IMG/VR virus record: IMGVR_UViG_3300008113_000084 | Coordinates: 1 to 64,000 of that record | Origin: a virus | Strand: one strand, 5' to 3' | Length of the DNA stretch: 64,000 nt | Shown here: positions 1 to 9,200 of the stretch, one piece after another | Position numbering within the stretch: the first letter of the stretch is position 1 | Layout: the number at the start of each line of letters is the position of its first letter | Notes under the pieces: generated by a model | Told to the model about the DNA's origin: nothing | Databases searched by the model: none | The model's input: the letters and a program-made list of their open reading frames with translations, nothing else | Translations under genes and position numbers: made by a program

Positions 1-3000
1 GCTTGTACCACCGACGTGAAGGTTGCTGCCTGTCTCGTAAACAACGCTGTTGCCTGCGCCAGTCGTGCTGGTGAATTTGGCCAGGTAGTTTGTCGTACCG
101 CTAAGAGTACCTGGACCTGTAGAACCAGTTACGCCTGTGGCACCTGTTACACCTGTAACACCAGTAGCCCCAGTAACACCTGTAGGTCCTGTAGCGCCTG
201 TGGCTCCTGTTACACCAGTTGTACCAGTAACGCCTGTGACGCCTGTTGTGCCTGTCGCGCCGTTGGGGCCAGACGGGCCAGTCGTGCCAGTTACGCCAGT
301 GGCTCCTGTGGCTCCTTGAGGACCTGTAACTCCAGTAGCGCCTGTGACACCAGTTGTACCTGTAGCCCCTTGAGGCCCAGTAACGCCTGTCTGGCCAGTT
401 ACGCCTGTAGCGCCTGTTGCGCCAGTAGCTCCTTTTATACCCGTTGCGCCTGTTGCTCCAGTTACGCCTGTGACACCAGTCGCACCGACTGCACCTGTTA
501 CACCTGTAACGCCAGTGACACCAGTTGCGCCAGTTGCGCCAGTTACACCGGTCGCGCCGGTTACGCCTGTGTTACCAGTTACGCCCGTAGCTCCTGTGGC
601 ACCAGTGATACCGGTAGCCCCAGTAACACCTGTAGCGCCAGTAGCTCCTGTTACACCAGTAACGCCGGTTGCACCAGATACGCCTGTCGCACCTGTTGCT
701 CCGATGTCGCCAGTTCTGCTGAATCCAAACTGATAGTTGTTTGCGTTGGTAGGTATTGTGCCAGAGACGTAGGAAACAGGAATCTTGTAATAGCCTGTGG
801 CTACGGTTACTGCACCTGTAATCCTGAATACGTTGACTACAGTGTCAGCTGTGCTGTTAGCCGCTATAACCAAGTAACCCTTGGTGCTATTGGTCGAGTC
901 ATCCCAGGTGTCGTACCAACCTGTCTGAGTGTTGCCCAGGGCGTCTAGGTTGTCGATGAATATGTTTGTGACGGAAGCCATCGTACCGCTGCTATAGCGG
1001 AAGATGCCGTTGCCTGGGTCCGAGTCTGTAGTTGTAGTGCTGAACTGATACTTAACGCCACCACGATCACCAGTTACACCAGTAGCACCAGATACACCTG
1101 TTGCCCCAGTTACACCAGTAGCTCCAGTAACACCAGTAGCGCCAACAGCTCCTGTGATACCTGTAGCGCCTGTGACGCCAGTTGCTCCGCTTGCTCCTGT
1201 TACACCAGTAGCGCCTGTGGCTCCTGTAGCGCCAGACGCTCCAGTTGCACCAGTGACACCTGTTACACCTTGTGAACCAGTAGAGCCAGTTACACCTGTA
1301 GCGCCTGTTGCACCTTGAGGTCCAGACGGCCCAGTGTTACCAGTTACGCCAGTAGCGCCTGTGGCTCCTTGAGGTCCGGTTACGCCTGTTGTGCCTGTTA
1401 CACCAGTATTACCAGTAACACCTGTAGCGCCAGTTACACCAGTTGCACCAGCTGCGCCTACAGCACCGTCAAGGTTAACTGTCCAGCTAGCGTGAGTACC
1501 AGAGCCTACGAAGGCATCCTTCGTGAATATCAATGAGCCTGTGCCAGAGTTGTAGCTGCTGACTGTGCCTTCTTGGTAGTTAGATACAGAGTTAGCTACA
1601 ACAATCGTCTGGCCTACCGAATAAGCCAAACCTGTTCCAACAGTTATTGTTTGAGAACCGCCTGTACCAATCGTGAAGCTGGTAGAGCTGGAAGTCAGGT
1701 ACTTGTCACCAGCTGTACCTGTTACACCAGTTACACCTGTGGCACCAGTTACACCTGTAGCACCGGTTACACCTGTGGCACCAGTAGCACCAGTAATACC
1801 TGTAGCGCCTGTTACACCGGTAGACCCTGTAGCTCCAGTGACGCCAGTAGCGCCGGTTACTCCTGTAACACCGGTAGCTCCAGTTGCGCCCGTTACACCA
1901 GTTGTTCCAGTAACCCCTGTATTACCAGTTACGCCCGTAGCGCCTGTGGCTCCAGTTACACCGGTCGCTCCTGTTACACCAGTTGCACCAGTAGCTCCTG
2001 TAATACCCGTTGCGCCTGTAACACCCGTTTGACCAGTTACACCTGTAGCTCCAGTAGCCCCAGTTACACCAGTAGCGCCAGTTACACCGGCTGGGCCAGT
2101 AGCGCCCGTTGTGCCAGTAGCGCCAGTAGCACCAGTGACACCTGTAGCTCCCGTAGCGCCTGTAGCGCCTGTAATACCTGTGGCACCAGTTACACCTGTA
2201 ACACCCGTCGCGCCTACTGCTCCGGTTACGCCTGTGGTCCCTGTAACACCAGTAGCGCCAGTTGCGCCCGTTACACCTGTAGCTCCGGTAACACCTGTCT
2301 GACCCGTTACACCAGTTGCTCCAACTGCGCCTGTAATACCTGTGGCACCGGTTACGCCAGTTGTACCTGTCGCACCCGTAGCTCCCTGAATACCCGTCAC
2401 ACCAGTAACACCGGTTTGGCCTGTTTGGCCAGTGACGCCAGTTACTCCTGTAGCTCCGGTAGCGCCTGTGACACCGGTTGTACCAGTGACGCCGGTGACA
2501 CCAACAGGACCAGTAACACCAGTAATGCCTGTTACACCAGTAGCCCCAGTAGCGCCGGTTACGCCTGTGGCTCCTGTAACTCCTGTAATGCCTGTTGAAC
2601 CAGTCGCGCCCGTCTGGCCTGTGACACCAGTTGCACCAGTCGCCCCAGTAGCGCCAGTGACGCCAGTAGCACCAGTGACGCCAGTAGCTCCAGTAGCCCC
2701 AGTAACACCAGTGGTCCCTGTAGCTCCAGTAGCACCGGTAACACCAGTAGCACCTGTAACCCCAGTGGCCCCAGTAACTCCTGTGACACCTGTAACGCCC
2801 GTAACACCTGTGACTCCAGTCTGTCCTGTGACACCTGTGGCTCCTATCACGCCCGTGACGCCGGTAGCGCCAGTAGCACCTGTGACGCCTGTTGCACCGG
2901 TTACACCAGTAACGCCAGTAACACCTGTGACACCTGTTGAACCAGCAGACGAGCCGCCAATTGGTGTGAGGACATGGCTGACGTAGCAAGCGCCACTATG

Positions 3001-6253: not shown

Positions 6254-9200
6254 TTAGGGGTTATCGACTAAAGGAATGTCACTTTCTATAGTCGTGAGAA
6301 AGTACATTCTGCCAAAAGCCGCAGCACCTGTAGTACCAGTGGCACCAGTTGTACCTGTTACACCTGTTTCACCTGTTATGCCTGTAGCACCTGTAACACC
6401 AGTCAAGCCTGTAACGCCGGTGGGGCCTGTTGCGCCTGTGCTTCCAGTTACGCCTGTCTGACCAGTAACGCCTGTAGAGCCTGTGGCTCCAGTTATGCCG
6501 GTTGCTCCGGTATAGCCCGTTACGCCAGTTTCGCCTGTGATGCCTGTAGCGCCGGTAACCCCAGTTGGGCCGGTGGCACCTGTGCTTCCTGTTTGACCTG
6601 TGGCCCCAGTAACGCCAGTTACACCAGTTTCACCAGTCGCGCCTGTTACACCTGTGGCTCCAGCAGCGCCAACAGCGCCGTCCAGGTTTATTGCCCAAAC
6701 GCTGTAAGTACCAGAACCGACAAACGCATTTTTCTGGAATACCAAAGACCCATTTGCTGGGTTGTAGCTAACTACAGTGCCTTCTTGGTAGTTGTTTACG
6801 TCGTAGGCGATTACTATCGTCTGACCTACAGAGTAGGAAAGATCGAGGTCTACAGTTATTGTCTGATTGCCACCATTAGCGAGGGTAAAGGCGGTAGAAC
6901 TTGTCGTTTGATATTGATCACCAGGCGCGCCTGTTACACCAGTAACGCCTGTTGCACCGGTAACACCCGTTTCACCAGTTACACCCGTTGCGCCAGTAGC
7001 GCCTGTGATGCCGGTTACACCTGTCGCGCCAGTGACACCCGTCTCACCTGTGACGCCTGTTGACCCTGTGGCTCCTGTTACACCGGTTACACCAGTAACA
7101 CCTGTTTCGCCGGTAATTCCGGTAGCGCCAGTTACACCTGTTTCACCAGTGACACCTGTCGAACCTGTAGCGCCTGTTTCGCCTGTTACACCGGTATAGC
7201 CAGTGACACCAGTAGGCCCTGTAGCTCCTGTTACGCCTGTGGGGCCTGTAGCTCCTGTTACGCCTGTAGCCCCAGTGGCTCCGGTAACGCCAGTAGGTCC
7301 AGTAGCTCCTGTTTCGCCAGTGACACCTGTGGCCCCAGTTACACCGGTTTCACCAGTGGCACCAGTTGCACCCAGATCACCGGTTACGCCAGTGCTGCCC
7401 GTAGCGCCTGTAACACCAGTTACGCCAGTGACACCTGTTTCACCGGTAACTCCAGTAGCGCCTGTGATTCCGGTTTCGCCGGTAGCTCCTGTAACACCAG
7501 TTTCACCCGTTACACCAGTTGCGCCTGTTGCACCAGTAACGCCGGTCTCACCTGTGACGCCCGTTGACCCTGTAGCTCCTGTTTCTCCAGTAACGCCAGT
7601 AGCGCCAACAGCACCGGTTACACCAGTGCTGCCTGTTGCTCCTACCTGCGTGTACATTACCTGCGTAGCAGTGAGAATAACGGAAGGTATAGCTGGTGCT
7701 GGAGAGGCGGCAGGTACGTACTGCAAGAAAAGATTAGTATCGGTAGTCTGCCAGAAAAGCTCTATGTAGTCGTTGTCTTCTACTTTTAAAACAAAGTTAA
7801 CAGAACCTATAGCGTGGCCATCTACGCTACCGTGGTTTTCGACGACACTCCACTTGCTGTCGCTGTCAGGTAGGTTATTGCCGTTTTTCTTAAGCCATAC
7901 GTTTGCGTCTTCTATTTGATTATGGGCGTTTGCAAACTGTACTGAGAAAATTATGCTGTAGACGCCAGCGTGAGCAAAAGTAAGCCGAGTATTAGATACC
8001 AGGCTTACACCGTTATTGTCTGGGTCAGAATTATTTAGAGTTATCGCGTAGCCAGTGTTTATCGCTGCCGCTGTTTGATCTTGCGTAGACCAGAAAGAAC
8101 CCCAGTAGCCCAGGGCACCGCCAGCGCCTGTTACGCCTGTTGGGCCTGTAGCGCCTGTTACGCCTGTTGGACCGGTGGCTCCAGTTACACCTGTTACACC
8201 TGTTTGACCGGTAACGCCTGTCTCGCCTGTAACACCAGTGACGCCTGTCTCACCAGTGACGCCTGTTACACCTGTAGCTCCAGTCGCGCCTGTAATACCG
8301 GTAGCGCCGGTTACTCCAGTAACACCCGTAGCTCCTGTAACGCCAGTTTCACCCGTTACGCCAGTTGCGCCTGTAGCGCCTGTTATTCCAGTAGCACCGG
8401 TAACTCCGGTTGCGCCGGTAGCGCCTGTGACGCCAGTGACGCCTGTTTCTCCGGTGGCCCCAGTAGCACCAGTAGCGCCAGTAACACCTGTGGCTCCTGT
8501 TACGCCTGTGGCACCGGTTATGCCAGTTACGCCTGTAGCGCCAGTTTCACCTGTGGCACCAGTGACACCTGTTGCTCCGGTTGCTCCGGTTACACCTGTT
8601 GCCCCTGTTACGCCAGTAACACCCGTAGCCCCAGTGACGCCCGTAACTCCGGTTTCACCTGTGACACCAGTTACACCAGTAGCGCCAGTAGCGCCTGTTG
8701 CACCTGTAGCACCAGTAACGCCGGTCTCGCCGGTAACCCCTGTAGAGCCTGTGGCTCCAGTTACGCCTATAGGCCCAGTTATGCCTGTAACGCCGGTAGC
8801 GCCGGTCTCACCAGTAGCCCCAGTTGCTCCAGTAGCGCCAGTGACGCCCGTAACGCCTGTGACACCGGTTACACCAGTTTCACCTGTTACTCCGGTTACA
8901 CCGGTTTGACCTGTTACGCCAGTGGTACCTGTGACACCAGTCTGACCTGTTACGCCAGTGGCTCCGGTTGCTCCGGTGGCACCCGTAATACCTGTTGCGC
9001 CCGTGACGCCCGTAACGCCTGTGACGCCCGTTGCGCCCGTAGCTCCAGTAATACCGGTAGCGCCAGTGACGCCAGTAGTCCCAGTAACGCCAGTAGAACC
9101 TGTTGCACCTGTAGCCCCTGTATGCCCCGTCACACCGGTAGCGCCAGTAGCGCCTGTCACTCCGGTAGCGCCTGTGGCACCAGTAATGCCAGTAGCGCCT

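Follow-up and report, generated by a model that had tools for sequence, protein, structure and literature searches.

Homologues of the first strand of a jelly-roll domain end two collagen-like tail fibre proteins of a freshwater phage and may dock into the next protein of the fibre

Three collagen-like tail fibre genes

We analyzed the first 64 kilobases (kb) of the 89,381-bp IMG/VR virus contig IMGVR_UViG_3300008113_000084. This stretch, whose base 1 is contig base 1, is called the window. The contig comes from an uncultured freshwater phage, and its completeness was estimated at ~43%. At the left end of the window lie three co-directional genes on the minus strand, here named A, B and C, whose boundaries cut through one type of globular domain. 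In all three products G-X-Y collagen repeats predominate (Pfam Collagen, E = 4e-111 for A, 7e-42 for B and 4e-107 for C), and each of them matches tail-fibre families of the PHROG database (phrog_6320, phrog_5073 and phrog_28263). They are collagen-like phage tail fibre proteins in which long G-X-Y repeats are broken by globular modules. The genes and the spacers between them are as follows.

6254..9388, minus strand: fibre gene A, 1044 amino acids (aa), ATG start; open reading frame (ORF) and translation
6241..6253, minus strand: A/B spacer, 13 nucleotides (nt; AGAGGGTTTAACT) between TAA and TTG, with GAGGG 7 nt before the start of B
4777..6240, minus strand: fibre gene B, 487 aa, TTG start; ORF and translation
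4753..4776, minus strand: B/C spacer, 24 nt, in frame, holds a TAG, with GAGGG 8 nt before the TTG of C
1..4752, minus strand: fibre gene C, at least 1584 aa, TTG start, open at the contig end

A consists of an N-terminal anchor-like segment, collagen, a C1q/BclA_C-like knob (a weak match to BclA_C in Pfam, E = 3e-4), collagen, a small domain of 78 aa, collagen and a C-terminal peptide that resembles the first strand (strand 1) of the domain described below. B opens with a basic leader, which is followed by its sole globular domain, a jelly roll, then by 264 aa of collagen and another C-terminal strand-1 peptide. In C, a leader, a Ser/Thr linker, a propeller-like region and a poly-Thr stretch precede a jelly-roll domain and collagen with two further globular modules. 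The distal end of C is missing, as the contig starts inside a fibre-tip-like segment of this gene; the assembly break probably lies in collagen repeats.

A jelly-roll domain cut at the same point at both gene boundaries

The C termini of A and B both read GRxY[YF][FL]..(E/D)S(D/G)I and stand directly after collagen. An earlier reading of this DNA, which we refer to as the original prediction, had claimed that the two fibre proteins end in homologous peptides and that the next gene in each case carries a homologous domain before its first collagen block. Translation confirmed the former claim. The latter holds as well: the jelly-roll domain precedes the first collagen block in both B and C, and residues 77-202 of B and ~486-610 of C are 45% identical over 126 residues (BLASTP, E = 2e-35). 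The C-terminal peptides are called plugs in the following, and the part of the domain from strand 2 onwards is called the socket.

6257..6313, minus strand: A-end plug, 19 aa, homologous to strand 1 and the SDI loop of the jelly-roll domain
6100..6240, minus strand: B leader, residues 1-47 (MANSRKNK...), with a candidate strand of its own at residues 33-45 (nt 6106-6144)
5629..6099, minus strand: B socket, strands 2-11, residues 48-204 (IPAGNW...HSG...LTPV), from phmmer and AlphaFold2 (predicted local distance difference test score, pLDDT, >90)
4780..4830, minus strand: B-end plug, 17 aa
4639..4752, minus strand: C leader, residues 1-38
2959..3510, minus strand: C socket, with a pre-strand segment at residues 415-447 (nt 3412-3510), then strands 2-11 at residues 448-598

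We collected homologues of the domain in an exhaustive phmmer search with B(1-204), which returned 1116 proteins at E <= 1e-3, the best match reaching E = 3e-33. In the best 150 of these 1116, which were inspected, the core of the domain is almost always preceded by G.x[YF][YF][FL]....SDI..Y..L, often right behind collagen. The consensus of a profile made from 147 intact copies opens with GVTYYLDDTASDIAGYESL, and AlphaFold2 modelled P0016, an intact copy that stands alone, with a mean pLDDT of 91 and with TYYLKDQA as its first strand. The original prediction had taken G-x-x-Y-Y-F...S-D-I to be the normal first strand of the domain. This was correct, because the intact homologues show it and the resemblance is far beyond chance, as the score gains given below demonstrate.

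According to the models, the domain is an eleven-strand jelly-roll beta-sandwich; the mean pLDDT for B was 86. It resembles the C-terminal jelly rolls found in CocE, in alpha-amino acid ester hydrolase and in PepX (Foldseek E = 3e-7, VIA-align Z = 12-15), with Z = 14.8 for the B model against the jelly roll of a CocE/PepX-type hydrolase. A Pfam scan gave no family for the domain, which is widespread among fibre proteins of uncultured phages. Judging from the homologue set, it is an unnamed family of inter-collagen jelly rolls, for which we use the name 'IPAGxW' domain. Both B and C have the family pattern of strands 2-11 (Y..L...P....E.D....V.....LI..Y.T..G.P....IPAG.W.F ... DR..VK.Y..T ... 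H.G....SH..TP), and against the 147-copy profile B scores 165-168 bits and C 129 bits. The single family feature absent from them is a strand 1 (G.xYYF....SDI) that is contiguous with the rest of the domain in one polypeptide.

Intact single-chain versions are found in a collagen fibre of LR756501, a 735-kb megaphage, and in the upstream fibre of IMGVR_UViG_3300021594_000641. They share the sequence family, the predicted fold and the inter-collagen site with the domain of B and C. The LR756501 fibre has the strand-1 motif inside one chain and the domain between two collagen blocks. In such intact fibres the motif G.xYYF..SDI comes straight after collagen, as it does at the ends of A and B. In the window, by contrast, a stop codon, a ribosome-binding site, a TTG and a leader of 38-47 residues sit in the loop after strand 1, and C additionally has a propeller-like module with a poly-Thr linker behind the leader. 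The position of the cut is the same loop at both boundaries, as originally predicted.

The LR756501 fibre (L003; LR756501.1, 410548-418964) is at least 2592 aa long, also has a long GPQ/GPT collagen block and stands in a record without annotation. A further, distant homologue, L015 (Ga0172379_10057625, ~nt 2100-3050), has strand 1 (SVTLWLDHATGDLTGP), an inserted domain of ~95 residues and strand 2 (PNLESLTPFP...) in one chain. By comparison of the sequences, L015 has independently received an insertion in the very loop at which the genes of the window are cut, and this loop tolerates insertions in general.

The junctions are genuine and recur in two further lineages

Neither boundary allows simple readthrough, in line with the original prediction: B is out of frame with A across the 13-nt gap, and the B/C junction is in frame but holds two in-frame stops (TAA and TAG). 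Read back from the start codon, the frame of B meets stops at 8 and 14 codons. Scans for promoters and terminators between the fibre genes gave hits at chance level. The stretch 4500-6500 is present in 20 DNA runs from 11 lake or freshwater studies, and no RNA run was listed among those that contain it. Logan contigs from two other lake studies (2023 and 2024) span this stretch with zero differences. Many apparent joints in the aligned contigs are due to cross-mapping of collagen repeats and are not real rearrangements. Because independent contigs are identical and two further lineages carry the junctions, these are not assembly errors.

Those two lineages have the same arrangement of genes. 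IMGVR_UViG_3300046777_002520 (192 kb; L004) carries three genes, A', B' and C', on the same plan. A' ends with GRMYFLSTLESDIVLVDNP and a stop codon, after which a 14-nt spacer and a TTG lead into B'; the B'/C' junction has a 24-nt spacer and a TTG, contains two in-frame stops and is nearly identical to the B/C spacer of the window. A' comprises an anchor, collagen and the plug only and lacks a distal domain, a design that is understandable only if another component joins it at the end. In IMGVR_UViG_3300021594_000641 (190 kb; L006), which has the near-identical contigs L007, L008, L013 and L014, the upstream fibre ends with YGRMYFFNSVKSTVPLVDNP and a stop codon, followed by a 13-nt spacer, a TTG and a downstream protein that opens with MARRNKNK.

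The PLVDNP-type junctions of the window, L004 and L006 have spacers of 13, 14 and 13 nt, corresponding to frames +1, -1 and +1, and their stop codons vary. The layout of plug, stop, GAGGG, TTG, basic leader and domain is kept at five junctions in three lineages, with the TTG starts at 6238-6240 and 4750-4752 in the window, at 5887 and 8473 in L004 and at 2816 in L006. Comparison of the junctions indicates that B and C start independently at a conserved GAGGG and TTG, and the spacers, which are short, conserved and equipped with ribosome-binding sites, suggest that translation of the genes is coupled so as to balance the subunits.

In all five downstream genes the TTG lies 7-8 nt past the GAGGG and the protein has the basic opening MA[RNK][SR][RK]K. 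The upstream fibre of L006 (1-2802) holds an intact copy of the domain (FGRTYFFDAAESDITGMESL...) as well as the terminal plug, so that the whole and the split forms occur in one protein. The C1q/BclA_C-like knob and the 78-aa small domain are in A in the window (7643-8092) and in B' in L004 (5887-8448). In these phages internal modules change from one fibre gene to another, and the junctions remain where they are.

We also searched for the split form outside these lineages. A fragment, P0004, on a 1088-bp contig has the same type of leader as the split downstream proteins, and the homologues P0031 and P0058 have proteins that begin at or past strand 2. Locus searches among viral contigs with P0004 and with P0031 found nothing, and a tblastn search of phage records with P0031 was likewise without a match. 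New finds in a metagenome scan were limited to the L006 lineage and two distant intact homologues. The junction DNA pattern GAGGGT-N5-CCTTGGC-N-AGR matched 81 viral contigs, with the junction itself only in the known lineages. Two candidates for additional splits without strand 1, P0050 and P0084, were rejected as truncated gene calls; their cluster mates P0152 and P0151 have a full strand 1.

The plugs fit the profile of the first strand

We joined the real 13-residue peptide of each upstream protein to the start of strand 2 in the domain that the next gene encodes and scored the result with the profile of 147 intact copies. The A-end peptide raised the score of the B domain from 164.6 to 174.6 bits (+10.0), and the B-end peptide raised that of the C domain from 129.2 to 134.1 bits (+4.9). 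None of 1000 shuffled peptides and none of 1000 random 13-mers matched the score of the real peptide at either junction. When every 13-mer of the N-terminal region of the downstream protein was tried as strand 1 (31 to 435 windows each), the upstream plug scored better at 5/5 junctions. The alignment to intact homologues by a hidden Markov model, a check set beforehand, thus placed the plugs in the strand-1 columns. On the strength of these scores, the peptides at the ends of A and B are true homologues of strand 1 and the following loop of the next gene's domain.

The plugs are well conserved between the lineages. The A-end plug is identical at 16/19 positions with L004 and at 12/19 with L006, and the B-end plug at 17/17 with L004. 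Between the window and L004, the A-end plug shows 11.5 synonymous differences at 12.2 sites, which is saturated, and 4.5 non-synonymous differences at 44.8 sites, giving a ratio of non-synonymous to synonymous differences per site (pN/pS) of 0.11; against L006 the ratio is 0.30. The A-end plug is under purifying selection. Past the homology to strand 1, the plugs have tails (PLVDNP and INTNT) that are conserved and bear no relation to the jelly-roll domain. The plugs are acidic (E/D-rich), whereas the downstream proteins open basic.

A possible plug-and-socket joint between the fibre proteins

We propose that A, B and C would be translated separately and make up, as its three subunits, a single long tail fibre of the collagen-like kind, physically joined through the plugs in a non-covalent plug-and-socket chain, a reading to which we give a probability of roughly 0.55. 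In the intact form, the chain emerges from the triple helix of the collagen with strand 1 and the loop behind it, and then continues into strands 2-11. Here the gene is cut in that loop, such that the upstream protein keeps the collagen and strand 1 (the plug) and the downstream protein has a short basic leader and strands 2-11 (the socket), with the propeller-like module also situated at the cut in C. The plug of A would dock as, or beside, strand 1 of the domain of B, and the plug of B likewise in the domain of C. The plug might fill an empty position, displace a weak placeholder strand or add at the edge of the sheet. Docking would restore the succession of collagen, domain and collagen that single-chain fibres have, with no peptide bond across the joint, and the order of the fibre would be anchor (A), B, C and tip.

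Several observations weigh against this reading. AlphaFold2 modelled B(1-210) as a complete jelly roll with residues 36-45 as strand 1, and the alignment of this model to solved jelly rolls begins at residue 33. The segment right before strand 2 in C is conserved in C' (29/33 identical, 88%) and could be a strand of its own; the jelly-roll domains of C and C' are 92% identical. The basic leaders of 20-50 residues get no explanation from a plug and a socket. The split form was seen in one small clade only, comprising three lineages and one 1-kb fragment, and because of this confinement the repeated junctions may be a single event copied by duplication and not independent solutions.

We compared the plugs with the candidate first strands that the downstream proteins might supply themselves. 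Residues 36-45 of B have a pLDDT of 74-82, compared with >90 elsewhere in the domain. The alignment supplied to AlphaFold2 already had B residues 33-47 in the strand-1 columns, and the strand-1 placement may partly reflect this alignment. Set before strand 2, the own N-terminal segments changed the profile score by +2.7 bits for B, -0.3 for B', -0.2 for C and +0.7 for the L006 protein; the plugs in trans add 5 to 10 bits, the own candidates 0 to 2.7 bits. The candidate strand of B is not conserved in B', since the leaders are identical at 14/40 positions (35%) compared with 125/157 (80%) for the domains. The leader of C is identical with that of C' at 26/37 positions. In the L006 protein and in P0004 a poly-Thr stretch runs straight into strand 2 (TTTPDPATLYNLL, TTTANPSDTYNLL) and there is no adjacent strand 1; the best own window of P0004, FPQFFAKDITTSG, adds 3.8 bits. 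The L006 protein shares the motif [FL][FY/E].[KV]KAG with the C leader. The leader motifs LFEVKAG and DFYTKAGSS were considered as a far-upstream strand 1 and are unsupported, as they were not among the best-scoring windows. The claim that the downstream domains lack strand 1 stood in part: by profile their own candidates are weak or absent, while AlphaFold2 fills the position in B and the C/C' segment is conserved.

The downstream domains could instead be self-sufficient, with a diverged strand 1 in the leader or pre-strand segment, and the plugs would in that case have a different role. They might serve the end of the triple helix as a cap or for its register, or attach to some other component of the virion or the host, and A, B and C need not chain through the domain. 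The B model with its own residues 36-45, the conserved pre-strand-2 segment of C and C' and the gain from the own window of P0004 all favour this account. So do the insertion in L015, which indicates that long insertions in this loop are tolerated within one chain, and the plug tails, which are conserved yet unrelated to the domain. However, the own candidates never score better than the plugs, the candidate of B is not kept in B', no adjacent candidate exists in L006 and P0004, and this account gives no reason for a capping peptide to copy strand 1 of a domain encoded 13-24 nt downstream. We judge self-sufficient domains to be unlikely, if still to be reckoned with. In a strand-exchange version of the plug-and-socket joint, the weak and fast-evolving own strand (B 33-45; the pre-strand segment of C) would be a placeholder that keeps the socket soluble and is displaced by the plug. 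This version seems doubtful to us; if true, it would provide an ordered, self-checking assembly from A to B to C and a standard interface through which recombination at the junction would let phages exchange whole fibre segments or acquire modules like the propeller.

It is improbable that the plugs are non-functional leftovers of gene fission or module recombination in a single-chain ancestor, spread by duplication of a junction cassette. Collagen-repeat genes recombine readily and the shuffling of modules is visible between the relatives, the split is limited to one clade, and the two junctions per genome look like duplicates. Nevertheless, the purifying selection on the A-end plug, with a pN/pS of 0.11 and saturated synonymous sites, makes a decaying relic unlikely, and the peptides persist in three lineages with 84-100% identity compared with 35% for the adjacent leader. 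Very improbable, in our view, is the production of a single fused fibre, either because programmed frameshifting, readthrough or joining at the RNA level overcomes the breaks or because these are errors of sequencing or assembly. A +1 slip at CCC-TAA in the window would reach the frame of B, and the B/C spacer is in frame. But two in-frame stops interrupt the B/C junction in both phages, stops precede the start of B in its own frame, and the fusion would include a 40-residue leader without counterpart in intact homologues. As the frame relation varies (spacers of 13, 14 and 13 nt) and each junction has its own ribosome-binding site and TTG, a conserved recoded fusion is very unlikely; the identical contigs from two other studies and the presence of the stretch in 20 DNA runs from 11 studies argue against errors.

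Relation to known strand-complementation joints and fibres

In chaperone-usher pili (Fim, Pap), an Ig-like pilin without its last strand is completed by the N-terminal extension of the next subunit. The joint proposed here resembles them in that a fold short of one strand would be completed by the terminal peptide of a neighbour in a head-to-tail chain. It differs in that the fold is a jelly roll, the absent or weak strand is the first and the donor is C-terminal; the chain would consist of trimeric collagen rods made of three defined proteins and not of a polymer, and neither chaperone nor usher is part of the proposal. The PHROG scan of 20 window ORFs included no chaperone or usher genes, although no search was aimed at them.

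The baseplate of Tuc2009 offers a phage example, in which a 25-residue C-terminal beta-hairpin of BppU completes a beta-sheet of the C-terminal domain (domain 2) of BppA (PMC4742702). There, too, a C-terminal donor from one protein of the adsorption apparatus enters the domain of a partner in a non-covalent joint. However, the fold of BppA is titin/Ig-like, the donor is a hairpin and not a single strand, and no collagen is involved; the Tuc2009 joint is a solved structure, whereas docking of the plugs is deduced from sequence. When PDB sequences were searched with the profile, all matches were to collagen or of low complexity, and BppA was not among the fold matches listed.

In the F-ENA endospore appendages of Bacillus thuringiensis, the collagen-like F-Anchor and F-BclA are coupled via terminal hook peptides into beta-barrel neck domains (PMC12357932). 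As proposed here, collagen-like stalks are coupled to a fibre by short terminal peptides, but the domain is DUF4183, the hooks are N-terminal, the structure is that of a bacterial spore and no ancestral domain split across genes is described. The long tail fibre of T4 is likewise one long fibre of several separately encoded proteins (gp34, gp35, gp36 and gp37), joined non-covalently in a fixed proximal-to-distal order (PMC5537660). It has other folds and no collagen, and no domain split between neighbours is described for its joints. In a literature search we found no paper on a jelly-roll domain split across collagen-fibre genes.

If the plugs dock, ~15 residues and one jelly roll of 150 residues would form a compact connector that joins trimeric collagen rods non-covalently. 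Such a connector would explain how exchangeable genes allow some of the large phages of freshwater to make fibres that are very long, branched or decorated, and why modules shuffle between fibre genes with fixed junctions. It would add a case with a jelly roll and a C-terminal donor to the strand-complementation joints of pili, Tuc2009 BppU-BppA and F-ENA, and it could be of use to laboratory phage work in the design of modular receptor-binding fibres. As for annotation, a short conserved tail that follows collagen should not be taken for junk, and fibre genes that open inside a domain need not be pseudogenes.

The propeller-like insert and linkers of C

The third gene carries additional modules at the cut.

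4567-4640, minus strand: Ser/Thr-rich linker, on the other side of the propeller-like insert from the poly-Thr linker
3553..4566, minus strand: propeller-like insert, residues 63-400, with six Asp-box-like repeats
3511-3582, minus strand: poly-Thr linker, 24 threonines, behind the propeller-like insert

The six repeats of the insert are S-x-D-G-x-x-W-like and lie ~40 residues apart. The insert matches Pfam DUF6242 with E = 1.7e-5 and 25.2 bits, which is below the cut-off of 29, and no relative was found among the sequences of solved structures at E < 0.05. The original prediction had the third gene add a beta-propeller at the split point. The six repeats and the position of the module at the cut agree with this, while the match to DUF6242 remains sub-threshold, and a propeller is a plausible, weakly supported reading of the insert. 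A propeller-like module and poly-Thr are also present in the cut loop of the downstream protein of L006. The Ser/Thr and poly-Thr stretches of C look like mucin-type linkers and may be glycosylated.

Genes around the fibre genes

Directly upstream of the fibre genes, at 9881-12991 on the minus strand, lies a gene for a 1036-aa protein with the N terminus MPFKSKAQMRWMFANHPEMAKRW (phrog_1375, a family of unknown function). This protein has a hydrophobic C terminus with an acidic run and adjoins the fibres in L004 too; it may be a tape-measure or internal virion protein. Phage replication genes are present in the window as well, namely those for a DNA polymerase, helicases, an SbcC-like protein and a UvsX-like recombinase. 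Glycosyltransferase genes are located near the fibre genes in the window. Genes for an Endonuclease VII-like protein and an HNH endonuclease (12822-13824, minus strand) lie between the structural block and genes for a cupin/cysteine-dioxygenase-like protein and a glycosyltransferase.

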